Of a stretch of DNA of 64,000 nucleotides, positions 107-64,000 are shown one piece after another. Below the pieces are notes generated by a model, which was not told where the DNA came from, did no database searches, and was given only the letters and a program-made list of their open reading frames with translations. This DNA comes from Candidatus Aminicenantes bacterium JdFR-78. GTDB lineage: Bacteria; Acidobacteriota; Aminicenantia; JdFR-78. The position numbers and the translations under genes were made by a program. How positions within the stretch are numbered: the first letter of the stretch is position 1; the number at the start of each line of letters is the position of its first letter. The DNA lies in NCBI GenBank assembly GCA_002010665.1, contig MTON01000027.1:22780-86779 (forward strand), read 5' to 3'.

Positions 107-1063
107 ATGTTAAAGGAGAATATTTATCTATCAATAATTATTCCAGTATACAATGAAAGGGAAAATCTGGAGCAATTATATAATGAAATAATTGAAAGTT
201 TAGGAAATTTTGAGAAGAAATATGAGATAGTATTTGTGGATGACGGAAGCGAAGACGGTTCATTCTCTTTATTGAAAAAAATTCATAAGAGAGACCCAAG
301 GGTTAAAATAATAAGGCTAAGAAGAAATTTCGGTCAGACAGCTGCTTTATCAGCAGGTTTTGATTTTGCAAAAGGGAAAGTAATAATTACAATGGACGGT
401 GACTTACAGAATGATCCACATGATATTCCAAAATTGATTGAAAAATTGGAAGAAGGGTATGATATTGTGAGTGGATGGAGGTATAAGAGGAGGGATAATT
501 TCTTTACAAGAAGATTACCATCCATAATTGCCAATTGGTTAATTTCATTAATTACAAATGTGAAACTCCATGATTATGGATGTACATTAAAAGCTTTCAG
601 GGGAGAAGTAATAAAAAGCATTAAATTATATGGAGAAATGCACCGTTTTATCCCTGCTATTGCAAGTTCCATTGGAGTGAAAATAACAGAAATAAAAGTA
701 AATCATAGGAAGAGGAGAGCAGGGAAGTCAAAATATGGGATTTCTCGCACTATAAGGGTTTTTTTAGATTTAATAACAGTTAAATTCCTTCTAAGCTATT
801 CAACTAGACCTCTCCAAGTATTTGGATTAATAGGTCTTATAAGTGGATTAACGGGAACAGCTATAGGAGTTTATCTCTCTTACCAGAGGCTGATTTTAAA
901 AACAACAGGACTAACAAATAGGCCACTGCTTCTTTTAGCAATCTTGTTGATATTTATAGGAGTTCAGTTTATTACTATGGGGCTTTTAGCAGAAATGATT
1001 TCAAGAACATATCATGAATCAGTGAATAAAAAGATATACACTATTAGAGAGATAATTGAATGA
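107..1063 (+). CDS. Family 2 glycosyltransferase, polyprenol-phosphate sugar transferase type (GtrB/ArnC/DPM1-like), with C-terminal membrane anchor
   Basis: N-terminal 'SIIIPVYNE' and 'DGSxD' GT2 signatures, DxD-like 'MDGDLQND', and two predicted C-terminal TM helices, as in ArnC/GtrB. Confidence 0.8.
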   Translation: MLKENIYLSIIIPVYNERENLEQLYNEIIESLGNFEKKYEIVFVDDGSEDGSFSLLKKIHKRDPRVKIIRLRRNFGQTAALSAGFDFAKGKVIITMDGDLQNDPHDIPKLIEKLEEGYDIVSGWRYKRRDNFFTRRLPSIIANWLISLITNVKLHDYGCTLKAFRGEVIKSIKLYGEMHRFIPAIASSIGVKITEIKVNHRKRRAGKSKYGISRTIRVFLDLITVKFLLSYSTRPLQVFGLIGLISGLTGTAIGVYLSYQRLILKTTGLTNRPLLLLAILLIFIGVQFITMGLLAEMISRTYHESVNKKIYTIREIIE

Positions 1064-1069
1064 TGAAAA

Positions 1070-2230
1070 ATGAAAATATTAATGTTAGCACCTGAGCCTT
1101 TTTTCCAACCAAGAGGGACTCCCCTTAGTGAGTATTTTAGAATTAAAGCCTTATCTGATTTAGGGTATGCCACGGATTTGGTCACTTATCATATTGGCGA
1201 AGATGTAGAAATTGAAAATTTGAAAATTTATAGAATTCCTAAAATTCCATTTATAAAAGAAGTGAAAGTTGGACCTTCCCTTACAAAAGTGTTTTTAGAT
1301 TTTTTCCTTATTATAAAAGCTGTGGAGAGACTCCTGAAGGAAAGGTACTCTCTAATTTTTTCTCATGAAGAGGGGGCTTTTTTTGGAGTAATTTTAGCAA
1401 AAATCTGGAAAATTCCCCATTTGTATGATATGCATTCAAGTTTGCCCCAGCAACTTGAAAATTTCCAATTTTCAAGATCCAGAATTTTAAAGAAGATATT
1501 CACATGGATAGAAAAGTTTGTCTTAAGAAACTCTGAGAGGGTAATTGTGATTTGTAAGGATTTGTTAAATACTGCAAAAAAAATAATCCCTGAGGATAAA
1601 ATATTCCTGATTGAGAATTTTCTTACTCTCGAAGGGAAAGAATATTCAGATACTGATATTAAAAGAAAAAAGAAAGAACTTGGGATAAATAATAAAAAAA
1701 TAGTTGTATATGCGGGGACCTTTGAAAGTTACCAAGGAATTCCTTTGCTTTTAGAGGCTTTTAAAAAATTAGACCATAATGTTGTTCTTTTACTTTTAGG
1801 AGGAAAGCCAAAGCAGATTGAAGAATTAAAAAACATTGCTTTAAAACTTGATTTACTCGATAAAATATTTTTTTTAGGGCAGGTATCTCCTCTTGAAATT
1901 CCAATCTATCTCTCAATGGCAGATGTTTTAGTTTCACCTCGCTTAAGAGGAACTAATACTCCTCTTAAAATATACAGTTATTTAAAATCTGGAAAACCAA
2001 TTGTTGCGACAAAATTACCAACCCATTTGCAGGTCTTAAATTCAGAAAATTCAATTTTGGTTGAACCGAATCCAGAGAGTTTTGCCGAAGGAATTAAATT
2101 TGCTCTATACAACCCTAAAGCAAAGGAAATTGCCTTGAATGCCAAAAAATTTGCTGAGCAGGAGTACACATATAAAAATTATCTAATAAAAGTTAAAAAC
2201 ACGATGAATTTTCTTGAAAATAAATCATGA
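1070..2230 (+). CDS. Glycosyltransferase family 4 (GT-B fold, group 1)
   Basis: Length and pattern typical of GT4 (GT-B C-terminal domain 'VVYAGTFESYQGIPLLLEAF...LLGG'). Translationally coupled to neighbours. Confidence 0.75.
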   Translation: MKILMLAPEPFFQPRGTPLSEYFRIKALSDLGYATDLVTYHIGEDVEIENLKIYRIPKIPFIKEVKVGPSLTKVFLDFFLIIKAVERLLKERYSLIFSHEEGAFFGVILAKIWKIPHLYDMHSSLPQQLENFQFSRSRILKKIFTWIEKFVLRNSERVIVICKDLLNTAKKIIPEDKIFLIENFLTLEGKEYSDTDIKRKKKELGINNKKIVVYAGTFESYQGIPLLLEAFKKLDHNVVLLLLGGKPKQIEELKNIALKLDLLDKIFFLGQVSPLEIPIYLSMADVLVSPRLRGTNTPLKIYSYLKSGKPIVATKLPTHLQVLNSENSILVEPNPESFAEGIKFALYNPKAKEIALNAKKFAEQEYTYKNYLIKVKNTMNFLENKS

Positions 2231-3198
2231 AGGCATTTGTAACAGGTGGAAGTGGTTTTATTGGAACTCATTTGATTAACTTTCTGCTTTCCAGAAAATG
2301 GAAAATAAAAGCTCTTTTTCACAAGAGTCCCATAAATATTTCAAAGAATGAGATAGAAATTATAAAAGGAGATGTAAGGGATTTAAGCTTACTTGAGAAA
2401 TTCATAGAAAAAGGAGATATTGTAATTCATTTAGCCTCTGCTCTTGGCGCATCTTTAATTTCGGGAAAGGAGTTTTTTGAGATAAATGCAGAGGGAACAA
2501 GAAATGTTTTAATGGCATGTTTAAGAAATGGAGCAAAAAGAGTTATTCATTTTAGTTCAGCAGGTGTTATAGGCCATGTTAAAAGAGGTGAAATTGCTGA
2601 TGAAAATTATCCATTAAATCCAGAAGATTTTTATGAAAGAAGTAAACTTGAAGGGGAGAAAATTGCTGTTGAATATGGAAGAAAGGGATTAGATGTAATT
2701 ATTATCAGGCCAGGCTGGGTATATGGACCTGGTGATAAAAGGACTTTTAAATTAATAAAAGCAATTGCAAGTGGGAAATTTTTTATTATTGGGAAAGGAT
2801 TAACTACTCAGACTCCTATTTATATTGATGATTTAGTCGAAGGGGTTTATTTATGTCTTCAGAAAGGTCTTCCAGGGGAAATTTATAATTTAGCAGGACT
2901 TGAGATATTAAGTGTGAAGGAAATGGCTGAGATAATTGCTGAAAGTCTAAATAAAAGAATTTTTCCTATAAAAATTCCAGTATTTATTGCTAATATTTTA
3001 GCATGGAGTATGGACAGATCCTACAGGATTTTTAATCAAGAGGCCCCTTTAACACCATCCAAAATAAGATTTTTCACAAAAGCAAAATCTCTTTCTATTG
3101 ACAAAGCGAGAAAAGAATTAGGTTTTTATCCTAAAACTTCATTTCGGAATGGAATTGAAAAGACAATATCATGGTATAAAAAAAATGGCTGGCTTTAA
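2227..3198 (+). CDS. NAD-dependent sugar epimerase/dehydratase (SDR family)
   Basis: N-terminal Rossmann 'VTGGSGFIGTHL' and YxxxK-type SDR core. ATGA overlap with upstream GT. Confidence 0.8.
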   Translation: MKAFVTGGSGFIGTHLINFLLSRKWKIKALFHKSPINISKNEIEIIKGDVRDLSLLEKFIEKGDIVIHLASALGASLISGKEFFEINAEGTRNVLMACLRNGAKRVIHFSSAGVIGHVKRGEIADENYPLNPEDFYERSKLEGEKIAVEYGRKGLDVIIIRPGWVYGPGDKRTFKLIKAIASGKFFIIGKGLTTQTPIYIDDLVEGVYLCLQKGLPGEIYNLAGLEILSVKEMAEIIAESLNKRIFPIKIPVFIANILAWSMDRSYRIFNQEAPLTPSKIRFFTKAKSLSIDKARKELGFYPKTSFRNGIEKTISWYKKNGWL

Positions 3199-3203
3199 AA
3201 TGA

Positions 3204-3232
3204 TTGACATATTCCATATGAGAATATATATT
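3204..3232 (+). promoter_or_regulatory. Sigma70-like promoter TTGACA-17-TATATT upstream of the symporter gene
   Basis: TTGACA at 3204-3209, 17-nt spacer, TATATT at 3227-3232, about 40 nt before the ATG at 3273. Confidence 0.4.
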
Positions 3233-3272
3233 TTATTTTCAAATTTAGAATGAAAGCAAAAGGCGTGGAAAG

Positions 3273-4505
3273 ATGAGAAAAATTAAACTTCATACTCAAA
3301 TTTTAATTGGAATGCTTTTGGGAGTTATAATTGGGATAATTTTCCAAGAGAAAGCAGTAATAATTAAACCAATTGGTACCATCTTTATAAGACTTATTAC
3401 CATGGTTGTTGTTCCCTTGGTTTTTGTATCACTTTTTATTGGAACCGCAAGTTTGGGAGATATAAAGAAATTGGGAAGGATTGGTTTAAAAGCTTTCCTT
3501 TACTTTTTCATCACAACAGCAATAGCGATTTCTGTGGGTGTTACTCTTGCGAATGTAGTGAAACCAGGGAGAGGTTTGCCGGATGAAGTTCAAGCTCAAT
3601 TGTTGAAAAATTACCAGCAGGAAAAGATATTTGATTTTGGTAAATTAGAGGAGAGGCCGAGTCTGATTCAAACATTGGTAAATATAGTACCAACAAATCC
3701 AGTAAAAGCACTTGCAGAAGGTAATATGTTACAAATAATATTTTTAGCGATTATTTTTGGAATAGCAGTTACTCTCATAAAAAAGGAAAAAGCAAAAACA
3801 GTTATAGATTTTTTTGATGGCTTTAATGATACAATTATACAAATTGTACATATCGTTATGAGGCTTGCTCCTTACGGTGTTTTAGCTCTAATAGCTGCAG
3901 TAGTCGGGGAATTTGGAATAGATATTTTACTACCTTTATTAAAGTATTCGCTTGTGGTAGTTTCCGGACTCTTCATTTACACTTTAAGCGTAAATAGTTT
4001 AACAGTTGGTCTAATAGGGCGATTTAGCCCTATTAAATTTTTTAAAAATTATAGACCAGCTATGTTAATAGCATTCAGCACTTCAAGCAGTAATGCTGCT
4101 CTTCCAATTGCCATGGAATGTGTTCAGGAAAAAATGAATGTTTCAAGAGAAGTTACAAGTTTTGTCCTCCCACTCGGTGCAACCATTAATATGGACGGAA
4201 CTGCCCTTTATCAAGGAGTAGCTGCTATTTTCATAGCACAAATTTATGGAATGAATTTGGGGATTGTTCAACAATTGACAATAATTCTCACAGCTACCTT
4301 AGCATCTGTTGGAGCTGCTGGTGTGCCAGGTGCTGGAATAATTACTTTGGCAATGGTGCTTCAGGCAATAAATGTTCCTTTAGAGGGGATTGCTTTGATT
4401 TTGGGGGTTGATAGGATTTTGGATATGCTTAGAACTACCACTAACATTATAGGAGATGCAGCAGGAGCAGTGGTTGTAAATTCAACTGAAAAATTGAAGA
4501 AATGA
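3273..4505 (+). CDS. Dicarboxylate/amino acid:cation symporter (DAACS family, GltP/SstT-like)
   Basis: About 410 aa polytopic membrane protein with DAACS hallmark segments ('SSSNAALP', 'NMDGTALYQ', 'GVPGAG...'). Confidence 0.85.
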   Translation: MRKIKLHTQILIGMLLGVIIGIIFQEKAVIIKPIGTIFIRLITMVVVPLVFVSLFIGTASLGDIKKLGRIGLKAFLYFFITTAIAISVGVTLANVVKPGRGLPDEVQAQLLKNYQQEKIFDFGKLEERPSLIQTLVNIVPTNPVKALAEGNMLQIIFLAIIFGIAVTLIKKEKAKTVIDFFDGFNDTIIQIVHIVMRLAPYGVLALIAAVVGEFGIDILLPLLKYSLVVVSGLFIYTLSVNSLTVGLIGRFSPIKFFKNYRPAMLIAFSTSSSNAALPIAMECVQEKMNVSREVTSFVLPLGATINMDGTALYQGVAAIFIAQIYGMNLGIVQQLTIILTATLASVGAAGVPGAGIITLAMVLQAINVPLEGIALILGVDRILDMLRTTTNIIGDAAGAVVVNSTEKLKK

Positions 4506-5503
4506 CAAAAAATATTGGATATTATAGAAGAATATTACAAATGTTTTATCATTACAAAAAGAAATCTTTAATTTTACCCTATTACCCTGTTAGGTTTTGG
4601 ATTGAGCCTACAAGCTATTGTAATCTTAAATGTATAATGTGTCCTAATAAAGAGTTAAAAAAAGAGGAAAATGGTTATCTTGATTTAGAACTATTCAAAA
4701 AAATAATAGATGAAATAAAATATTTTGCTTTTGAAATTTTTCTCCATCACAGAGGAGAATCTTTAATACATCCGGATTTTTTCAAAATGGTAAAGTATGC
4801 TCATGAGGCAGGTATAACCGTTAAACTCCATACTAATGGAACTCTTCTTGATGAAAAAAAATCTTATCAGATAATAGAATCAGGACTTGATCAATTATCA
4901 TTTTCCTTTGATGGTTTTGACAAAGAAATTTATGAAAAAATAAGAGTCGGTGGGAATTTTGAAAAAGTGGTTAATAATATTATTCAATTTTTAAAAATTA
5001 AGAAGGAATTGAAGGCAAAGAAACCTTTTACGATTATTGAACTGATAAATTTTCCTCACATTTATTCAGATAATTCTAAAGAGAAAAGGGAAAAATTTTT
5101 AAACAGATTTAAGGGGCTCCCTCTGAATAGGGTTGAAATAAGAGAAATGCATAACTGGGCTGGACTGGTTGAAAAAAATCAAAACTCAAAAATTAAAACC
5201 CAAAATTCAAAAAATTACTCTCCCTGCACTTTTCTCTGGCAGGCTTTGATTATATTTTGGGATGGCTCTGTAGTTCCCTGTACTCAGGATTTTCATGGAT
5301 ATTATATACTGGGAAATGTAAAAGATGCTTCGATAAAAGAAATTTGGAATAATGAAAAAATGATAAATTTAAGAAAAAAAATGAGAAATAAGGATATTTG
5401 TGATCTTGATACATGTAAGAATTGTGACCGTTTGTGGAGAGAGAAATTTTTGGGGATTCCAAAAGAATATTTATGGAAATTTCTTTTGAAGAGAATGCCT
5501 TAA
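4502..5503 (+). CDS. Radical SAM enzyme with C-terminal SPASM-type Cys cluster
   Basis: CxxxCxxC 'CNLKCIMC' near the N-terminus. C-terminal extra Cys cluster 'CTFLW...PCTQDF...CDLDTCKNCDRL' consistent with a SPASM/twitch auxiliary Fe-S domain. Confidence 0.75.
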   Translation: MTKNIGYYRRILQMFYHYKKKSLILPYYPVRFWIEPTSYCNLKCIMCPNKELKKEENGYLDLELFKKIIDEIKYFAFEIFLHHRGESLIHPDFFKMVKYAHEAGITVKLHTNGTLLDEKKSYQIIESGLDQLSFSFDGFDKEIYEKIRVGGNFEKVVNNIIQFLKIKKELKAKKPFTIIELINFPHIYSDNSKEKREKFLNRFKGLPLNRVEIREMHNWAGLVEKNQNSKIKTQNSKNYSPCTFLWQALIIFWDGSVVPCTQDFHGYYILGNVKDASIKEIWNNEKMINLRKKMRNKDICDLDTCKNCDRLWREKFLGIPKEYLWKFLLKRMP

Positions 5504-55800: not shown

Positions 55801-56140
55801 TGGAGATATTTTCCCTTATAGATTTAAGAAATATAAACTTGGAAAGTTAATTGGAAAACGGACATGGGGAGGCGTTGTTGGTATCAGAGGCACTTTACCT
55901 CTTGTTGATGGTGGATATTTAATGAAACCTGAATTTGCTATTTATGATACAGAAGGGAAGAAGTGGATTATTGAGGGTCATGGTGTGGAACCTGATATCT
56001 ATGTGGATAATGACCCAGCGAAAGAGTATGCTGGAATAGATGAACAGTTGAATAAAGCTATTGAAGTTATTCTTGAAGAGCTGAAGACAAAAGAAAAAGA
56101 ATTACCTCCACCACCACCTTATCCAAAGAAAGATAAATGA
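52853..56140 (+). CDS. Tricorn-protease homolog (S41 family) with tandem beta-propellers and PDZ domain
   Basis: 1095 aa, signal peptide, repeated 'SPDGK' blades, PDZ. C-terminal S41 catalytic domain ('VRGNGGG', 'FSASDGD', 'EGHGVEPD'). Confidence 0.8.
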   Translation: MKLKSIFVFILAFILCYGIVYAPQEARVLRFPAIYKDQIVFTYAGDLYTVSAKGGIARKLTSHEGYEMFARFSPDGKMIAFTAEYDGNREVYVMPSKGGIPKRVTYTPVLRRDDVADRMGPNNIVMGWKHDNKHIVFRSRMREWNSFNGQLYLVPCDGGTPVQLPLPRGGFCSFSPDDKKLAYNRIFREFRTWKRYRGGMADDIWIYDFETKKVTNITNNPAQDIIPMWSGDKIYFLSDRDENKRMNLYVYDLKTKQTRKLTNFTEYDIKFPSLGPDAIVFEYGGYIYRFDLKTEKVSKVPIFIADDMVTGRDKIINVKDYITTFHVSPGGKRALFGARGEIFTIPIKYGNTRNLTNTSGVHERNPRWSPDGKWIAFISDKSGTGEIYIMRQDGSGKPEQLTFNGDTYKYEILWSPDGKKIMWSDKKLRLNYVDVETKKVVQVAKADIWEIRQYCWSPDSKWIAYAKPEVKGMTKIYLYNLDTKKTYEVTEGWYSSYAPCFSSDGKYLFFVSDREFNPVYSRVEWNYAYLAMAKIYFVTLRRDIKSPFEPKSDEVEIKEKEKKLPESKSKKGKEKKVKEKKKVVEVKIDPVGLKDRIIALPIETANYWHITSIGDRIYYMKRKDLERKSYLMMYDLKAQKETNLGNIDRYEISPDKKKMIIRKGKDYAIIDLPVSPIKIKEKLDLSHMEMKLNRKEEWNQIFNECWRHMKYFFYDPNMHGVDWEAMRRKYEPLARAVNHRADLTYVIGEMIGELNVGHAYVGGGDVPKVKRIKVGMLGAQFERDPKTGYYKIVKILKGQNWSKRLRSPLTEVGVNVKEGEYLIAINGKPTNKMKDMYEALVNTVGKQVKLKVNSKPTEKGAREVVVVPIESEQDLYYYNWVQKNIEKVNKATNGKAGYIHIPDMGRRGLNEFVKYFYPQLRKKALIIDVRGNGGGNVSPMIIERLRREIAMIGIARNTVPSPDPEALILGPKVCLIDEFSASDGDIFPYRFKKYKLGKLIGKRTWGGVVGIRGTLPLVDGGYLMKPEFAIYDTEGKKWIIEGHGVEPDIYVDNDPAKEYAGIDEQLNKAIEVILEELKTKEKELPPPPPYPKKDK

Positions 56141-56264
56141 GAAATGTGAAATGTAAAATGAAAAGCTGAATATCGAAAAACGGAAACCGGAAATCGGAAA
56201 ACGGAAATTAAAAATAATCTTTCATTCAATTTTTTCTGCATTTTCGATTTTCTTTAAGTCATCA

Positions 56265-56298
56265 ATAAAGGCGTCATACGCCTTTATACAATATTTTT
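56265..56298 (+). terminator. Rho-independent terminator after the tricorn gene
   Basis: 10-bp stem ATAAAGGCGT / ACGCCTTTAT with 3-nt loop, followed by 'ACAATATTTTT'. Confidence 0.5.
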
Positions 56299-56461
56299 GA
56301 CAGTGAAGGGCATATATAAAAAATTCTTTAAAGACAAGTATTTAGAAGAAAAGTAAATCGTATACCATAGAAGAAAACGACAGAGTTTTCCGCATCCTCA
56401 GAGGTTACAGAGTCTTCTGAAAAAAATGATTTTTTTCATAATGGATAATTTTTCATTGGAA

Positions 56462-57601
56462 TTAATATTTTATCTCATTCCAGTTTTCAATTTTTAATCT
56501 TTTAATCATTATATTTCCTGTTTCCTTGGAGCGAAGAAGAGAATAGATATAACCTCGCTTGATTACATGCGGATAGCAAGGTAACTTCGTATAATACAAG
56601 AACTTCCCTTTTGAACTGAAAATATCTATGTCCCATTCCTCTCTCTTATCAGATGGTGACTTAAATTTAATTACCCATATTCTTCCTTTCTCGTCAGTAA
56701 GTATATCAGTAAAAAATGGACAGTATTCAGGAATATACATCCTCTTTAATTTTTTGGCTTTCCTTGGAACAGGAATCGGATTTTCATCTTTTTTTATTTC
56801 AAAAATTAAATTACCTTCTTTATCAAGAACAAATAATCTATATTCATCTGACTTTGCATATATAATTTTATTTTCAAATGAAGCGAGAACTAATCTTAGA
56901 GCATATGGGCTCAAAACTCCTCCAAAAACTCCTCCACCTCCTTTGCCTTTTATTTTTATATTTCTCTCAATTAATTTATCTATTTCTTTTATCAGTTTGC
57001 CTTTAAAATCCAGCATAACAAGACAGTTGTATGCTCCGCTTTCCTCAAATTGAAGAACTGGAATAAAAATTCTCTGCTCAGATGTAATTACAAAGCGAAG
57101 ACCTAAATAAGGAGGGATTGAAAAATCAAAAGTCGAATAATCACAGGGAATTCTCTCTACAAAATCTCCATTTTTATTAAACTTCTCAATCTCTCTTCCA
57201 TCTTTAACATATATGTTATCTTCAGTGTCAATAAATATAGAAACTGGAAATTCAAACTCACCAGGTCCTTTCCCTCTTCTTCCAATTGTTTTAAGGTATT
57301 TTCCATTTTTATTAAATACTTGAACTCTACAATTTCCCCTATCAACTATATAGATGTTTCTCCTGCTATCAACCCCAATATCTGAAACCCGATAAAACAT
57401 ATAATTCTCATCTATTTCTGATTCCTTGATTGTTAAGTCTTCCTTTAATTTAAGTTTTAATTCACTACATTCAGGGTTAATCTCAGAACTACATATTTCT
57501 ATAAAAGCAAAAAACATAAAATAAAGAAGACATAACAAATAACCCTTTTTATTTTGTGTTCTCATCTGATAATTTTTTATAAAATAATTTTCGAATTTCA
57601 A
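56462..57601 (-). CDS. Secreted NHL-type beta-propeller protein (paralog family A, copy 1)
   Basis: Signal peptide. First blade is a canonical NHL repeat 'GRRGKGPGEFEFPVSIFIDTEDNIYVKD'. Paralogous to 57912-58999, 60322-61446 and 63693->64000. Confidence 0.55.
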   Translation of the reverse strand: MKFENYFIKNYQMRTQNKKGYLLCLLYFMFFAFIEICSSEINPECSELKLKLKEDLTIKESEIDENYMFYRVSDIGVDSRRNIYIVDRGNCRVQVFNKNGKYLKTIGRRGKGPGEFEFPVSIFIDTEDNIYVKDGREIEKFNKNGDFVERIPCDYSTFDFSIPPYLGLRFVITSEQRIFIPVLQFEESGAYNCLVMLDFKGKLIKEIDKLIERNIKIKGKGGGGVFGGVLSPYALRLVLASFENKIIYAKSDEYRLFVLDKEGNLIFEIKKDENPIPVPRKAKKLKRMYIPEYCPFFTDILTDEKGRIWVIKFKSPSDKREEWDIDIFSSKGKFLYYTKLPCYPHVIKRGYIYSLLRSKETGNIMIKRLKIENWNEIKY

Positions 57602-57602
57602 G

Positions 57603-57908
57603 CTATGTTTTAGTGTAGGGGCAGCATCTACTATAAGAAGCTACTGGCTCGTTATTAATAATGCACTGGCATAAAACGCATTCTCTTGAACCGCCATCAA
57701 TTCCACAAAAAACGTCCTCGCAATAACCAAATGTCTCACAAAAAATAATAAGAAATCCTTCTCTGCTTCGTTCGCAAATAAGGGAGGCTCGGCAGTGTTT
57801 TCTTTCTGCCGCATGAACAAATTTTACCACCATAAGTATTGCTAAAATTAGTGCTATCCCAATGCTTAAACCAATTAAAAGATGTTTGTTTTTTGATAAA
57901 CTTTTCAT
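57603..57908 (-). CDS. Small Cys-rich protein with N-terminal signal/anchor (101-aa class)
   Basis: N-terminal hydrophobic helix then 11 Cys in about 65 aa. SD 'AAGGGGA' 6 nt upstream. Stop lies 1 nt from the start of the downstream beta-propeller gene. Confidence 0.5.
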   Translation of the reverse strand: MKSLSKNKHLLIGLSIGIALILAILMVVKFVHAAERKHCRASLICERSREGFLIIFCETFGYCEDVFCGIDGGSRECVLCQCIINNEPVASYSRCCPYTKT

Positions 57909-57911
57909 TTT

Positions 57912-58999
57912 AATCCCCTTTTAAAGTTTTGGAATTTTAAACTTTATAAATTTTAATTCATATTTATCCTTTAAATGTCCATATTCAAGAACATATTTCC
58001 TATTTTTTCTATCTAAAGCAAAACCCCGGAGAATAAAAGGAACATTTTTTATAAATAATTTAATAAATTTATTTTTATAATTTCCATTTAAATCAAAAAT
58101 ATATACTTTTCTCCTTATTCCACATAATAAATTATTTTCTATAACTTCTATTCCAAAAATGTATCTAATAGCATATATTCCATCCTCACTTATTACATTC
58201 TGAGGGGTTTCAAATGGAAGTTTTGATTCTTTTATAAATTTATCAATTTCTAATACACCCCTGACTTTTAATTTTCTTAAGTTTCTAAAAAAGACTAACT
58301 CACCTTTTGAAGTATATTTATATATTTAAATATAACTGGATAAAAAACGAACGCACCGTATATATTGTCTTTGTTATCTATTATTAATTTTGCTTTATTA
58401 AAAAAACAATATGCTTCTATATCTTTTGTAGGAATTATTTTTCCAAAGGTCTTTGTTAGTTTACCGTTTTCATTAAAACCAGAAATCAATTTTTTATTCA
58501 AGAATTTGCTTTTATTTTTACTATCAAGAAAAATCATTTTTTTAGAACCAACTACAATTGAACTCACCCCATATAATTCCTCTTGAATGGAAATTTTCTT
58601 TTTAAATTTTCCGCTTAAATCATATACTTTAATACTGTTATCACCATTTATTATGTAAATTAATCCTTTTTTAATAAAAAAGGCTTGAGGCTTATAAAGT
58701 GATTGCTCATCTTGACCTATCTGTCCAATTTGTCCAATTATTTTACCTTTCTCATTTAACTTTAAAATTCTGTGATTCTCTCTATCCAAGGCATAGATAA
58801 TACCGTCATTGTAAGCAAAAAGTGTTTGCGTCAAATAAAAATTAAGATTCATTTTATCAAAATCTTCTGTCTCTGTGTCAAAAAGCACCTTTGCATTAAC
58901 TTTGATTTCTTTCTCAAAGGCTGGAGAGGAGATTAAAAGGTGGAACGATATTATTAAAAGATAAAATAGAATTAAAAGTAATTTAAATATTCTCTTCAT
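57912..58999 (-). pseudogene. Frameshifted paralog of the NHL beta-propeller family
   Basis: ORF 58295-58999 (234 aa) stops at about two-thirds of paralog length. The remaining C-terminal third ('...DGIYAIRYIFGIEVIENNLLCGIRRKVYIFDLNGN...') continues in a different frame to a TAA at 57921-57923 with no ATG. Shift lies near an A6 run at about 58285-58291. Confidence 0.5.
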
Positions 59000-59849
59000 T
59001 TACTCTTCATAAGCAATTTTAGTATCGCATTAAATATATACTCTTCGCTCATTCCAATTTTCTCAACGAAAATTATTTTTTTATTTTTTATTAATACGGT
59101 AAAAGGATCATTCTTTAAAAAATCATCAGTAATATATTTTTGCTCATCTGGTAATAAATTGAAATTGGGGCATTAAATATATCTCAAAAGGTATTTTTAT
59201 ATATCCTTTAATTTCCTTTACATCATTACTGTTAAATGGATCAAGAAAAGTAATCAACACCCTGCTTTTAATCTTTTCTTTTTTCAATCTGTCCCGTAGC
59301 TTAATCAAGGTATTAATTCTTTTCCCTGTCTTGCACAAGCTGCAAAAAGATGAAAAAATAGTTAAAATTATATTATCTCCTCTTGAAATATTTCTTAGGT
59401 AAATTTTTTTTTCTTCCTCACATCGTAAAGAATTAAATCAGGAACTTCTTTCCCTTTAATAAATATCGTCTGCTCAGACGGTTTTTTAAATATATAATTA
59501 ATTTTCCCAAGGATACTCTTTTCCACCAATTGCCTCATCTCTTCTTCACTGATTAAACTTTTTGAATAAAATTCAATTTTCCATTTTTAAAATCTTTGTC
59601 TTTATATCGCTTAAATAATACTTCTGCATAAACTAATTTGAATTTGTCAGATATGTATAGGGGGTCAAAAAATAGAATAAAAAGATTTTTCACTTTTTCT
59701 TCACATAAAACAAATAAGTTTCCATTAATATCCTCAGCGTAAAAGTCCGGAGCTCTGTCTCCATAAGAAAATGCTTTTTTCTCCACTCCCACCAAGAAAG
59801 ACCAGAGGAAAATTGTTAAAATCATTGCTGAAATCAGCAATGCACTCAA
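58996..59849 (-). pseudogene. Disrupted TlpA-like thioredoxin-fold gene (at least two frameshifts)
   Basis: Three frames each match successive parts of the intact copy 61931-62497: N-terminal anchor plus 'APDFYAEDINGN' (frame of 59553-59849), CxxC 'FCSLCKTG...' (frame of 59144-59338), C-terminus '...KIGMSEEYIFNAILKLL' (to 58996). T9 homopolymer at 59404-59412. Confidence 0.45.
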
Positions 59850-59877
59850 TACGTTTATTGACTTCTTAAATCTCGTT

Positions 59878-60300
59878 ATCCCTTTGCACTAAAAAATTTA
59901 TTTATCAAATATCATAAAGTCAATTAATTTTATTCGTAAATTTTCCGATTTGATATCTTGCTCTATATTCGGAAGGAGTGACACCTTCCATTTCTTTAAA
60001 ATCTTTATAGAAATTCTGAACGAATTTATATCCAACTCTATATGAAATCTCTTTTATACTCAATGAATCACCTTCTAAAAGCTTCTTTGCTTTTTCAATT
60101 TTCCTTCGCTTTAAATAAGCTTTAAAAGTCATTCCAATTTCTTTTTTAAAAAGCTCGCATAAACGAGAACGACCAAGACAACAGTATTTTGTAATAGTTT
60201 TTAGACTTATCTTTTTATCTAAATTCTTTTCTATAAACTTAAGAGCTTTTTTGACTCTTAAATCCATTTTTCATAAAATTTAGGACTAAAAAGAGGAAAA
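59878..60300. repeat. About 420-bp segmental repeat (copy 2) carrying the AraC gene and its flanks
   Basis: Near-identical at nucleotide level to 62484-62950, including the 'CCCTTTGCACTAAAAAATTTATTTATCAAA' 3' flank and 'ACTAAAAAGAGG..AAACTT' 5' flank. Confidence 0.7.
59920..60267 (-). CDS. MarA/SoxS-sized AraC-family HTH regulator (copy 2)
   Basis: 115 aa consisting only of the dual-HTH AraC DNA-binding domain. Nearly identical to 62532-62897. Confidence 0.75.
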   Translation of the reverse strand: MDLRVKKALKFIEKNLDKKISLKTITKYCCLGRSRLCELFKKEIGMTFKAYLKRRKIEKAKKLLEGDSLSIKEISYRVGYKFVQNFYKDFKEMEGVTPSEYRARYQIGKFTNKIN

Positions 60301-60321
60301 ACTTAAACTAATTATTATAAA

Positions 60322-61446
60322 TTAATCTTTAATTTTTAAAGAATATACTGCAAAACTTGGAGTTACTTCATCAATGCAAAATGTATAAATATTATTATTT
60401 TCATCAATATCCATTATCGTTTCTGGGCCAAATTTTATATCCTTCTTTATTAAAGTCCCATCTAAAGAAAAAATGTCCAGATAATTTCTCGTCTTTTTAA
60501 TTCCCTTTTCTCTATAAGTCTCGGATAATTGAACTACTACATGGTTTTCTTTTGTAAAATGAACTCCTGCAATTACAATTAATTTTTCAATAGAATCCAT
60601 GATTCTCTGAATTTCTGCAACACTTTTAATTTTTTTTACGCTTAATTCGACTAGTTTTTTAGGAAATTTATAACCTGGGATTTTTCTTCCAAATTTTCTT
60701 ATCACTTGTCCATTTGTATTCAGAATATAAATTATATAAGGATTCGAGGGTTCAAAATGTGCAAATGCAATTAGATTATTTTTAACATCTATACTCCCCA
60801 TATAAGGCGTATGCAAACTATCCTTTCTTGGTTTTGGCCTATCCGGGAGAACTTCCTCAAAAAATGATTTAATGTATTTTCCAGTTCTATCATAAACATG
60901 AATATGATATTTTGACATAAGTTGTGGAGGGAAATAATAAATTACAATATTTCCATTTATGTCAAAATCCATACTTCGAGGATATTTCCAAGGCATGAGT
61001 TTTATAGATTTAATAAAATTCAAAGAATTATCAAAAATGCTTATTCTTCTGTTTCTAATTTCAGCTACCCAGATATTTCCTTTCTCATCAATTGCAAAAT
61101 GAGAAGGAGAATCAAGCTCTCCAGGTCCTTGTCCTTTTCCTCCTGCTTCTTTTATAAATTTTCCATCCTTTGAGAATTTCTTAATTGTATGTCCTTTAAA
61201 ATCAAGAACAAAGATATTACCATCTCTATCAGCTTTAATATCAGTTATCAGGAAAAAAAGCTCTTCTTTCTTTTCTTCACTTCCGATTTTGAATTTTTTT
61301 TCAATAATTACTTCTTTACCTAAAATTCCATTTGTTATAATAATTAAGCTTAGAAAAACCACAAAGATCTTCCTCATTCTTTCTCTCATTTTTTCATCCC
61401 CTGTTTGATATTTATCTATAATTACTATTGAGCTATCTCTATGCAT
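60322..61446 (-). CDS. Secreted NHL-type beta-propeller protein (paralog family A, copy 3)
   Basis: NHL blade 'GGKGQGPGELDSPSHFAIDEKGNIWVAE'. Probable true start at the internal 'MRERMRKIFVVFLSLIIITNG' signal peptide (about 61389). Confidence 0.6.
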   Translation of the reverse strand: MHRDSSIVIIDKYQTGDEKMRERMRKIFVVFLSLIIITNGILGKEVIIEKKFKIGSEEKKEELFFLITDIKADRDGNIFVLDFKGHTIKKFSKDGKFIKEAGGKGQGPGELDSPSHFAIDEKGNIWVAEIRNRRISIFDNSLNFIKSIKLMPWKYPRSMDFDINGNIVIYYFPPQLMSKYHIHVYDRTGKYIKSFFEEVLPDRPKPRKDSLHTPYMGSIDVKNNLIAFAHFEPSNPYIIYILNTNGQVIRKFGRKIPGYKFPKKLVELSVKKIKSVAEIQRIMDSIEKLIVIAGVHFTKENHVVVQLSETYREKGIKKTRNYLDIFSLDGTLIKKDIKFGPETIMDIDENNNIYTFCIDEVTPSFAVYSLKIKD

Positions 61447-61646
61447 TTTTCGTAAGAAATTCTACATCCTGTTGTGCATTCATGAAATAAACCAAAAGGA
61501 ATATAGGCAACACACATTAAAACGCAAGCCTCATATAAATCCTCGCATTCTTCTTCTGTTATTGCTAAAACCGGTTTTTGTTTAGTAAGAAATAAGTTTA
61601 AAATTAAAATGAAGGAAATAATAATAATCAATAATTTTTTTACCAT
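61425..61646 (-). CDS. Small secreted Cys-rich peptide precursor (73-aa class, copy b)
   Basis: Signal peptide with 'PVLA|IT' cleavage-like site. Mature about 45 aa with C-x6-C-x3-C ... C-x3-C-x6-C spacing. Confidence 0.5.
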   Translation of the reverse strand: MVKKLLIIIISFILILNLFLTKQKPVLAITEEECEDLYEACVLMCVAYIPFGLFHECTTGCRISYEKCIEIAQ

Positions 61647-61686
61647 CTCTTACCTCCTGCTTTATTCTAATTTATTAATTAAGCGG

Positions 61687-61908
61687 TTACTCCTCAGCCA
61701 TACTCATGCAAAGTTCAAAGAAAATTCTACATCCTTCTTGACATCCATAATTCGAACCACAACTTTCTTGACATGCAGAAAAAATTTCAAGGCAATCTTT
61801 TTCTGTTACTTTTGCAATCATTGATTTTTGAAAAATAGTTAAGAAACCAAAAACAAGGAACATTAAAAGAGCACTCGTTAATAAGAATACTTGAATTTTT
61901 TTAGACAT
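61687..61908 (-). CDS. Small secreted Cys-rich peptide precursor (73-aa class, copy a)
   Basis: Signal peptide 'SMIA|KV'. Same mirrored six-Cys spacing (CLEIFSAC QESC ... CQEGC RIFFELC). Confidence 0.5.
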   Translation of the reverse strand: MSKKIQVFLLTSALLMFLVFGFLTIFQKSMIAKVTEKDCLEIFSACQESCGSNYGCQEGCRIFFELCMSMAEE

Positions 61909-61930
61909 CCTTACCCCCTGAATTTTATTT

Positions 61931-62497
61931 TTAAAAAATTAATTCTCTTAATTCATAATAATCACTCCCATCTAATTCACCTGTTTTTATCCATTCAACT
62001 TTGCCTTTCCCATTAATTAAAATAGTCTGAGAAAATTTCGAAATTCTGTAATCTCGAATAAATTTTTCTCTATTTTTAGGAGTATAAACTGGAATGTCCA
62101 CTTTTAAATATGATTTTAAATTTCGTGCATCTTTCAGTTCCCTTAAACTGATTAATAGTACCCTTGCCTTATCTTTAAGTTGGTAACTTAACCTTCTCCA
62201 AAATATTAAATTTTTATCACAAGGAATACATGAATTTGTTTGAATGAAAAGCAATGTTTTCTTATTATTATTGAAATCAATAAATTCTATTTTGCCATCT
62301 AAATTAACTGCTTCTATAGGAGGTGCATAATCGTCTGGGATTAGATGAGGAATTTCTTTTCTTAATGCTATTATATGAGCTTTAAGCCTTCTATTTTGAA
62401 TTATTAATATCACTATTTCTAGTAAAATCAACAAAATTAATATTCCTATTAAAAAATTAACTAATTTTTTATATTTCATTGTATTATCCCTTTGCAC
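61931..62497 (-). CDS. Membrane-anchored TlpA/ResA-like thiol:disulfide oxidoreductase (thioredoxin fold, CxxC)
   Basis: N-terminal TM, 'APPIEAVNLDGK' start of the thioredoxin domain, active site 'SCIPCDKN'. Likely start is the ATG at 62479 (SD 'AAAGGGA') rather than the GTG at 62497. Confidence 0.7.
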   Translation of the reverse strand: MQRDNTMKYKKLVNFLIGILILLILLEIVILIIQNRRLKAHIIALRKEIPHLIPDDYAPPIEAVNLDGKIEFIDFNNNKKTLLFIQTNSCIPCDKNLIFWRRLSYQLKDKARVLLISLRELKDARNLKSYLKVDIPVYTPKNREKFIRDYRISKFSQTILINGKGKVEWIKTGELDGSDYYELRELIF

Positions 62498-62950
62498 TAA
62501 AAAATTTATTTATCAAAAATCCTAAAGTCAACTAATTTTTATTCGTAAAATTTCCGATTTTGTTAGTAAATTTTCCGATTTGATATCTTGCTCTGTATTT
62601 GGAAGGAGTGACACCTTCCATTTCTTTAAAATCTTTATAGAAATTCTGAACGAATTTATATCCAACTCTATATGAAATCTCTTTTATGCTCAGTGAATCG
62701 TCTTTTAAAAGCTTCTTTGCTTTTTCAATTTTCCTGCGCTTTAAATAAGCTTTAAAAGTCATTCCAATTTCTTTTTTAAAAAGCTCGCATAAACGAGAAC
62801 GACCAAGACAACAGTATTTTGCAATAATTTTTAGACTTATCTTTTTATCTAAATTCTTCTCTATGAACTTAAGAGCTTTTTTGACTCTTAAATCCATTTT
62901 TCATAAATTTCCCTTTCCATTAATTTAGTACTAAAAAGAGGGAGAAACTT
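62484..62950. repeat. About 470-bp segmental repeat (copy 1) carrying the AraC gene and its flanks
   Basis: See copy 2. Contains an internal 21-nt tandem duplication ('GTAAAATTTCCGATTTTGTTA'). Confidence 0.7.
62532..62897 (-). CDS. MarA/SoxS-sized AraC-family HTH regulator (copy 1)
   Basis: 121 aa AraC dual-HTH domain. C-terminus carries a 21-nt tandem duplication relative to copy 2 ('IGKFTNKIGNFTNKN' vs 'IGKFTNKIN'). Confidence 0.75.
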   Translation of the reverse strand: MDLRVKKALKFIEKNLDKKISLKIIAKYCCLGRSRLCELFKKEIGMTFKAYLKRRKIEKAKKLLKDDSLSIKEISYRVGYKFVQNFYKDFKEMEGVTPSKYRARYQIGKFTNKIGNFTNKN

Positions 62951-63390
62951 GAAAATTTTTGAAATTTTTATAAGTTAAGTAAAGCCAATAAGTTAAATAG
63001 ATAGTTTTCTATCCACGAATCAAAAGATTTTTTTTATATTTTGAGGAAATCATAAAAAAATTCGATAAAAAAAATGACAAATTTCTCATTAATATGAAAA
63101 GATGTTTAAATAGTAGAAAGATGCTTTCTTTAAGTTAAACTGTTCGGAATAACAATTTGTCCAAAAATTTTGTGAAAGAAAAGATAGACAGGCTACTTTT
63201 TATTACCTCTCTTTTTAGTCTCTCCTCTATTTTTATCATTTCGAATCAGATTCTATATGAATTTTTATAATTATGACGATCGGTAAAGTAACCTATTCTT
63301 TTTTATTTACCATCTCATTCCTTTCTAATTTAAACTTGTTTCCCCCTACCGATTTCTTTTTACCCAGAATATTATATCTTAGGAATCAAA

Positions 63391-63696
63391 TTAACGACAG
63401 CAAGTTCTGCGATATTCGTCACAATACCAATAAAACCATTCCCAAGGCCCTGTACATTCTATTAACCATTCAGAACGACAAATGCAATAACCATCACACC
63501 AGGCTTCCTCTAATGTGTAGTTTTTACAATTTCTTTTTCCTCCACAATCTTCAACACAATGTTCACGAGCAAGACTTTTACATAATATTGTGGGTGTGCA
63601 AGATTTTGGTTCATCTGCAAATAGATATTTAATCAAAATTAAATCAAAACATAAAATTAAACCTAAAATAATTAAAAGAAGAAGATTTTTCTTCAT
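63391..63696 (-). CDS. Small Cys-rich protein with N-terminal signal/anchor (101-aa class)
   Basis: Hydrophobic N-terminus then 12-13 Cys in about 70 aa. ATG overlaps the TGA of the upstream beta-propeller gene (ATGA). Confidence 0.5.
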   Translation of the reverse strand: MKKNLLLLIILGLILCFDLILIKYLFADEPKSCTPTILCKSLAREHCVEDCGGKRNCKNYTLEEAWCDGYCICRSEWLIECTGPWEWFYWYCDEYRRTCCR

Positions 63697-64000
63697 TTTT
63701 GACTCCTTAAATTAAATTTTTTAAAAATCTTATTTTGGTCAACTTGTTGCTTTTTCTTTTTATAGATTATTATTTTTGTATTACTTAAAACTGCGTAGAT
63801 ATTTTTAATGTTATTAATACAATAAATTCCATCAGTAGTATTAGGAACTTCTATACAAGAAACAAAACTTCCATTTTTTCTAAATATATATATTTCTTCT
63901 TTTTTGATAGAACTATTAAAATAAAAAAGATATAAATTTTCGTTATTATCCGATAAAAATTCATGAAATGCTACCCTATATCTCCCTTTGGATAATGATT
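63693..64000 (-). CDS. C-terminal part of a fourth NHL beta-propeller paralog (5' end beyond window)
   Basis: Open frame from the window edge to TGA at 63693-63695. '...YIFRKNGSFVSCIEVPNTTDGIYCINNIKNIYAVLSNTKIIIYKKK' resembles the C-termini of the other paralogs. Confidence 0.4.
   Translation of the reverse strand, partial: SLSKGRYRVAFHEFLSDNNENLYLFYFNSSIKKEEIYIFRKNGSFVSCIEVPNTTDGIYCINNIKNIYAVLSNTKIIIYKKKKQQVDQNKIFKKFNLRSQK

Follow-up and report, generated by a model that had tools for sequence, protein, structure and literature searches.

A nearly orphan cysteine-rich small protein and its rare redoxin-propeller gene module in an Aminicenantes genome

In a 64-kb stretch of Aminicenantes DNA, referred to here as the window, a minus-strand reading frame for 101 aa at 57603–57908 is, on comparative sequence evidence, a real coding gene under purifying selection. 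Its product, Cys-rich protein C (CysC), belongs to a very narrow family which, as far as sequence searches reach, is almost an orphan. The conserved companions of CysC, judged from gene order and sequence, are a redoxin and a C-type beta-propeller. Together with an AraC-type regulator they form an AraC-redoxin-NHL propeller-CysC module that is previously undescribed, very rare and lineage-restricted. A preliminary description of this DNA had drawn attention to the small gene and its propeller neighbours; the redoxin and AraC genes were absent from it. Most of its observed details hold up, and its interpretation does so in part. We tentatively propose, at a little short of an even chance, that CysC is a Sec-exported disulfide-rich accessory protein which is matured by the redoxin and acts with the C-type propeller.

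The CysC gene

CysC runs from an ATG at 57908 to a TAG at 57605–57603. The preceding reading frame ends in a TAA at 57923–57921, followed by a spacer of 12 nt that holds the Shine-Dalgarno (SD) sequence AAGGGGA (57914–57920), an arrangement that bears out the preliminary description; in the orthologues the SD reads AAGGAGG. The protein begins with a Lys-rich segment (MKSLSKNKH) and a hydrophobic stretch of ~19 residues (residues 10–28). A conserved V/M/I-x-A site ending at A33 then leads into a 68-aa domain with ten invariant Cys, in agreement with the hydrophobic N-terminus and Cys-rich domain first reported. All members of the CysC family share the Lys-rich n-region, the hydrophobic core, an invariant Ala at -1 and V/M/I at -3. 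The Cys lie at positions 39, 45, 57, 63, 68, 77, 80, 82, 95 and 96, ten rather than the eleven originally counted, and include CxC and CC motifs. Their density (10 in 58 residues) compares with 0.79% in the long ORFs of the window, and CysC is without any Trp.

Searching 5.8 billion proteins for CysC returned the protein itself, labelled 'hypothetical protein' and assigned to Candidatus Aminicenantes MAGs of the Juan de Fuca Ridge, together with orthologues of 83% and 76% identity, two in all. All ten Cys are kept in three close orthologues (76–83% identity), and the mature part of the alignment is more conserved than the leader. Nucleotide differences among the orthologues fall mostly at third codon positions. 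The synonymous/non-synonymous comparison proposed earlier gave a coding pattern, with an overall dN/dS of 0.12–0.33 (Nei-Gojobori, against orthologues) and a value of 0.027 for residues 35–101 against the orthologue at locus L002. The gene is missing from three public annotations although the underlying DNA is 100% identical, so its apparent absence from some assemblies is an annotation difference. This omission, and the lack of a Pfam or NCBIfam family, are what could be said for CysC as a spurious ORF in AT-rich DNA. That reading is hardly credible given the orthologues, the low dN/dS and the conservation of the Cys, the SD and the synteny; the conserved Cys and the dN/dS refute it, and the ORF is real as first claimed.

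Family breadth and predicted structure

An HMMER search with a profile of three CysC-family sequences covered about 15 billion proteins through 1.84 billion representatives. It brought up one additional cluster, P0125 (88 aa, E 1.2e-4), with ~33% identity to CysC. The profile search suggested earlier has thus added a single relative and nothing else among those representatives, and within the ~15 billion proteins the family comprises four clusters at 50% identity. When JGI metagenomes were scanned at the DNA level, three short contigs emerged, all of the close lineage of CysC, and a scan of viral contigs gave no CysC-family match. Pfam-A and NCBIfam searches at E<=0.1 assigned no family to CysC or to the second 101-aa ORF of the window, and relaxing the threshold to E<=10 produced only transmembrane-helix or chance matches (OppC_N; Myticin-prepro at 0.03 for P0125).

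An AlphaFold2 (AF2) model of CysC, made from an input of only three sequences, has a pLDDT of 80 and shows a helix at residues 3–37 followed by five beta strands; a Foldseek comparison with the PDB gave no match. The hydrophobic segment is long, and the modelled helix runs through the putative cleavage site, so the N-terminal segment may be either a signal cleaved after V/M/I-x-A33 or a retained anchor. Among PDB sequences, the best match to a five-member CysC profile was the pilin PilA5 at E 0.16. In view of this hit and of the helix and beta sheet in the model, a type IV pilin was considered and rejected, as the CysC alignment has neither the conserved Gly-Phe nor the Glu5 of a class III signal (G|F/M-x-x-x-E).

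Other known types of small protein were likewise set aside. A double-glycine bacteriocin or RiPP does not fit the CysC leader, which is Sec-like with an A-x-A-type site. The 8-kb cluster around CysC contains AraC, redoxin, propeller and small ORFs only, with no C39 ABC transporter or maturase. A defence-system reading of the cluster was rejected, there being no PADLOC or Pfam toxin/immunity match, and PADLOC gave no match for CysC or for the second 101-aa ORF. NVEALA small proteins, which we take to adjoin DUF5128 propellers in Bacteroidales, were rejected as relatives, with no PF14055 match for any of the four small Cys-rich ORFs of the cluster in Pfam. A literature search found no NVEALA-type small proteins described beside DUF5128 propellers.

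Unit C and its decay

CysC lies in one of three paralogous minus-strand units that extend from 56.4 kb to the window end (8 kb) and a further 2 kb beyond it on the extended contig L003. Unit C has the order AraC, redoxin, propeller C, CysC, propeller D. At its head is an AraC regulator (59920–60267, minus strand) of 115 aa, consisting of the HTH domain only and of MarA/SoxS size. Redoxin C (59000–59858, minus strand) is a two-domain TlpA/ResA-type pseudogene that has lost an internal segment and is broken in frame at several points, one of them after an A9 run; a CSLC remnant is found near 59345. Its homologue at L090, the locus of P0125, is intact (348 aa, CSPC), and that at L099 has one frame break. 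The redoxin stop overlaps the ATG of propeller C as ATGA in both the window and L090. In the PDB, the proteins closest to the redoxin were Bcp and ResA.

ResA/TlpA-family proteins are usually reductants. Together with ten invariant Cys that include CxC and CC motifs, and an anoxic habitat in which disulfides are less expected, this would favour a periplasmic thiolate protein that binds metals or clusters in the manner of a metallothionein or chaperone, and whose Cys are kept reduced by the redoxin. On evidence that is scant in both directions, we consider such a role very improbable. The cluster has no MerR, ArsR or CsoR regulator, no transporter and no His/Met ligands, and its regulators are AraC-type. 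The Cys are even in number, and AF2 models a compact beta structure of the kind seen in disulfide-rich folds.

Propeller C (57921–58999, minus strand) is a C-type, NHL-like gene immediately upstream of CysC. It is intact in L099, L001 and L090, with about 357 aa, and a pseudogene in the window. The frameshift noted in the preliminary description was traced to an 8-bp tandem duplication (TAAATATA twice, 58313–58328), which is absent from propeller C of L001 and L099. The same shortened ORF of 234 aa is present in eight of eight independent assemblies, and the frameshift is therefore biological and not a sequencing error. Ribosomes reading the frameshifted gene would stop ~390 nt earlier.

Downstream of CysC lies propeller D (56462–57565, minus strand), a six-bladed D-type DUF5128/NHL propeller of 367 aa from its ATG with a signal-peptide-like N-terminus. 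Its Pfam scores are 50.4 bits for PF17170 (cut-off 22.9) and 27.5 for the NHL repeat PF01436 (cut-off 20). The NHL signal in Pfam is weak in propeller C (E 0.0015–0.012) and clear in propeller D. A propeller profile matched solved NHL domains in the PDB at E 1e-52, with SOQ1 and NHLRC2 among the matches. The start of propeller D was earlier placed 1 nt after CysC. What lies 1 nt after the CysC TAG is an in-frame TTG at 57601; the first ATG (57565) follows the stop by 37 nt, and it is the start chosen by gene callers and shared by the orthologues (MRTQNKKGYLL, MGKRNKKGYLL, MRKQNKKGYLL).

The TAG-C-TTG junction (57599–57605) is conserved in the window, L001 and L002. The TTG is in frame with propeller D, with no intervening stop, in these three lineages despite spacers of 12, 36 and 39 nt. 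From the sequence, it could be a re-initiation start.

With the redoxin and propeller C reduced to pseudogenes and CysC intact, unit C of the window is decaying relative to its intact counterparts. Either CysC works without the redoxin and propeller of its own unit, or the death of the unit is too recent to have marked CysC.

Units A and B

Unit B consists of an AraC gene, a redoxin, two 73-aa Cys-rich ORFs and propeller B. The AraC regulator (62532–62897, minus strand) is again HTH only and is 95–96% identical to the unit C copy. The duplication covers the gene and a downstream promoter-like spacer (TTGACT-17-TAAATT), with 95–96% identity between 59876–60226 and 62484–62856. Redoxin B (61931–62479, minus strand) is a membrane-anchored protein of 182–188 aa with a CIPC motif and, being intact, is a possible substitute enzyme for the lost redoxin of unit C. 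Propeller B (60322–61389, minus strand) is a DUF5128/NHL protein of 355 aa that scores 41.2 bits for PF17170.

Between redoxin B and propeller B lie the two 73-aa ORFs (61425–61646 and 61687–61908, minus strand), annotated as 'hypothetical' and singletons at 90% clustering. Both have signal-peptide-like N-termini and strong SDs (AGGAGG, AGGGGG). Each has six Cys in a mirrored spacing, C-x6-C-x3-C...C-x3-C-x6-C, a pattern that suggests a disulfide-stapled helical hairpin.

Unit A comprises a redoxin-like gene without CxxC, propeller A and Cys-rich protein A. The latter (63391–63696, minus strand) has 101 aa with 12 Cys in its mature part and an SD of AAGGAG. Only the 3' end of propeller A (63693–64000, minus strand; DUF5128, 363 aa) is inside the window, which cuts the gene. 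On L003, where the gene is complete, the redoxin-like gene lies further upstream of propeller A. The ATGA overlap between the propeller stop and the start of Cys-rich A, as originally described, was confirmed there (propeller at 1232–2323, ORF at 2320–2625). Cys-rich A is a singleton, with no homologue among 5.8 billion proteins. A 119-aa low-complexity ORF on the plus strand (63273–63632), antisense to Cys-rich A, is probably spurious.

Across the 64 kb of the window, just four small ORFs have both a signal-like N-terminus and at least five Cys, and all of them fall within 57.6–63.7 kb. The two 101-aa ORFs had been presented as members of one class, and this holds for architecture and context; homology of their mature parts is not detectable. 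The apparent link between them (BLASTP E 8e-4, and a phmmer hit) stems from the leader and its junction, and homology was rejected. When the mature parts of Cys-rich A, the 73-aa ORFs and a further Cys-rich ORF at locus L036 were scored against the CysC-family HMM, none did better than 1000 composition-preserving shuffles, and CysC homology of the 73-aa and L036 ORFs was likewise rejected. By these comparisons, the small Cys-rich class is one of shared architecture (a Sec-like leader and a Cys-rich domain) and context, not of descent.

The GC content is 25–31% in the cluster (56000–64000) compared to 33–39% in the flanks, where housekeeping genes encode a tricorn protease, an epimerase, a CCA-adding enzyme and HicAB. 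The assemblies of the region (L003, L091–L096) all break off ~200 bp upstream of redoxin A, an indication that further repeat units lie beyond. The low GC, the duplication of AraC and its spacer and the assembly breaks at unit A mark the region as accessory and fluid. An Rfam and terminator scan found nothing between the cluster genes.

Related loci

L090 carries, in order, a D-type propeller, an AraC gene (55% identical to the window AraC), the two-domain redoxin, a C-type propeller and two tandem Cys-rich genes (4023–4289 and 4368–4634). The 5-kb contig is labelled Hodarchaeota, which is probably a case of mis-binning. Both Cys-rich genes have strong SDs. The gaps are 46 nt upstream of the first gene and 78 nt, and more than 300 nt follow downstream with no propeller there. 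The two genes arose by a recent tandem duplication that includes the 3' flank. Sixteen non-synonymous changes and 3 synonymous ones separate them (pN/pS about 1.3), a ratio not significantly off the neutral expectation (211:53 sites). Both copies keep all ten framework Cys, and the second has gained an eleventh.

L099 has the order AraC, double redoxin, intact C-type propeller, CysC. The gene directly upstream of CysC is a C-type propeller in all four lineages, and SD-bearing spacers of 12–18 nt follow propeller C. The synteny of redoxin, propeller and Cys-rich gene holds across relatives that are only about 33% identical. On two metagenome contigs the arrangement is altered. At the start of the L097 contig (1–321), an unrelated open frame, for which no identity was found, takes the place of the CysC leader. 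In L098 (165–473) propeller D breaks off early, and the DNA after it is unrelated. These variants may represent strain-level decay or assembly chimeras.

An alternative is that the Cys-rich proteins are released disulfide-rich effectors, bacteriocin- or defensin-like or inhibitors, with the redoxin folding the peptide and the propellers serving as immunity or decoy proteins. Sublancin, a disulfide bacteriocin with the dedicated thiol-disulfide oxidoreductase BdbB, provides a precedent for a small exported Cys peptide co-encoded with a thioredoxin-fold oxidoreductase, and fast evolution and lineage specificity are common to both. Four unrelated Cys-rich sequences in one 6-kb cluster, from orphan or singleton families, would fit such a role. 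So would the excess of non-synonymous changes on a fixed Cys scaffold in L090, and low GC with repeated unit duplication and pseudogenisation is typical of antagonism loci. Propellers found elsewhere without such a peptide could then be explained as orphan immunity genes. However, the L090 ratio is compatible with neutrality, and the CysC orthologues are under strong purifying selection (0.027). CysC has a Sec-type signal rather than a double-glycine leader, and in a diderm host this delivers to the periplasm only. The cluster has no ABC transporter, lysis gene, outer-membrane export function or recognised immunity gene, nor, as above, a PADLOC or Pfam toxin/immunity match. An effector is hence a rather unlikely alternative to the accessory protein proposed here.

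L036 is a contig labelled TA06. Its region at 133–3326 carries a MauE-family gene (PF07291, E 2e-17) that has one Cys instead of CXC. Next come the N-terminal remnant of a redoxin-like gene, an anchored protein of 172 aa, an ORF of 90 aa with 11 Cys and a propeller homologue.

Survey of propeller loci

A set of 79 loci around D-type propeller homologues was collected from GTDB species representatives, mostly Aminicenantes, and scanned in all six frames. Propeller ORFs numbered 164 in 78 loci, with paralogue arrays common. The propellers flanking CysC are members of the DUF5128 (PF17170)/NHL arrays of Aminicenantes and other phyla, scoring above the Pfam gathering threshold; elsewhere these arrays are without redoxin, AraC or Cys-rich ORF alongside. 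Small Cys-rich ORFs with signal-like N-termini beside propellers were confined to the lineage of the window and close relatives of it, to L036 and perhaps to L057. The ~160 propeller genes in the 75 other loci had no such ORF adjoining, with two possible exceptions. Conservation beside propeller paralogues, the comparative check proposed earlier, therefore extends to close relatives and L090 and is nearly absent from the 75 other loci. No redoxin or AraC gene was found among 150 neighbours of other propellers by phmmer, HMM and Pfam searches; these neighbours were heterogeneous (TPR, sigma-70, methyltransferases). Neither the Cys-rich ORF nor the redoxin and AraC pair is a general companion of the propeller family. 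A metagenome scan with the C-type propeller gave no match.

A further reading is the original one, that CysC is an obligate small subunit held at fixed stoichiometry with the propellers by translational coupling. An analogue would be the MauA/MauB pair of methylamine dehydrogenase (MADH), matured by MauD and MauE. The dedicated TlpA-like MauD and MauE have been implicated in maturing the small Cys-rich subunit of MADH, with MauE acting as a DsbB-like disulfide generator (bioRxiv 10.64898/2026.03.05.709764). The likeness lies in a small exported disulfide-rich subunit gene beside a beta-propeller gene and a dedicated TlpA-like redoxin, here in the same operon. Further points for a subunit are the ATGA overlap at Cys-rich A, the short SD spacers after propeller C, the conserved in-frame TAG-C-TTG junction and, at L036, a MauE-family gene adjoining another Cys-rich ORF and a propeller.

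Against this, most homologous propellers have neither the small partner nor a redoxin, so the stoichiometric partnership first claimed is not borne out. The frameshift in the upstream propeller of the window leaves no coupling possible, and L090 has two Cys genes set apart by 46-nt and 78-nt gaps with no downstream propeller. Of the coupling between two propellers originally described, an operon-like array stands, and tight coupling does not, given the frameshift, the TAG-C-TTG junction with its 37-nt gap and the loose L090 spacing. Comparison with MADH itself points the same way. The propellers here are six-bladed NHL/DUF5128 proteins whereas MauB is seven-bladed. MauA has two Trp that form tryptophan tryptophylquinone (TTQ), and CysC has no Trp for a quinone cofactor. 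CysC was rejected as a MauA, since neither MauA nor any other PDB chain matched it in sequence and Pfam Me-amine-dh_L gave no match. The L036 MauE lacks the CXC active site. For the companion genes of MADH (MauB, MauG and MauD/MauE) the picture is mixed: the window has a TlpA-like redoxin and NHL propellers, and a search of the window for MauE found none. An obligate subunit is, taken together, decidedly improbable.

Proposed mechanism

The accessory-protein model starts from a module of a MarA-size AraC regulator, a membrane-anchored TlpA/ResA redoxin, a C-type propeller and one or two Cys-rich genes, joined in close relatives by a D-type DUF5128/NHL propeller downstream. The CysC pre-protein would be exported to the periplasm via its Sec-type N-terminal signal. 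There, the co-encoded CxxC redoxin would join the ten thiols of CysC into five disulfides or rearrange these bonds. Mature CysC would then work with the C-type propeller, its only invariant neighbour, as a ligand or partner in an accessory role. As the propellers also carry signal-like N-termini, every component except AraC is proposed to be periplasmic. Export, disulfides, redoxin dependence and propeller binding are what we infer for CysC from these features. Against the model stand the pseudogenes of redoxin C and propeller C beside an intact CysC in the window, and the variant contigs L097 and L098. The source organism is moreover an anaerobe from subseafloor fluid, going by the name of the source MAG, and a search of the window for the disulfide generator MauE found none.

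Pairing of a thioredoxin-like (Trx-like) domain with an NHL propeller is known within the single polypeptides SOQ1 and NHLRC2, for which no small Cys-rich client has been described (PMC6107167; bioRxiv 10.1101/2021.03.16.435614). The window module resembles SOQ1 (chloroplast lumen) and NHLRC2 in having a Trx-fold unit first and a six-bladed NHL propeller second, in an extracytoplasmic setting. A Trx-fold CxxC unit directly before an NHL propeller was found in L090 (CSPC) and, as the CSLC remnant, in the window. Two differences stand against a close equivalence: the units here are separate genes joined by an ATGA overlap, and the redoxin is nearest to ResA/Bcp, not to the Trx-like domain of SOQ1/NHLRC2. 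A bolder extension of the accessory-protein model would make the module a split-gene bacterial counterpart of SOQ1/NHLRC2. The propeller would hold a Cys-rich client while the CxxC redoxin sets its disulfides, and CysC, Cys-rich A and the 73-aa pair would be interchangeable substrates. This extension is speculative and, on balance, unlikely.

Significance

The immediate impact of these results is modest, as the family is tiny and the copy of the module in the window genome is partly decayed. If the proposed model is true, it would bring to light small exported proteins that are unannotated or inconsistently annotated. It would also reveal, in a subsurface phylum without cultured members, a compact periplasmic redox module consisting of a regulator, a redoxin, an NHL propeller and a Cys-rich client. 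Such a module could illustrate the making of disulfide-rich proteins in anaerobes lacking DsbA/DsbB, and offer a tractable bacterial model for Trx-like/NHL pairs. Should the split SOQ1/NHLRC2 reading hold as well, the Cys-rich proteins would give a widespread and mechanistically obscure architecture its first set of clients defined by genetics.
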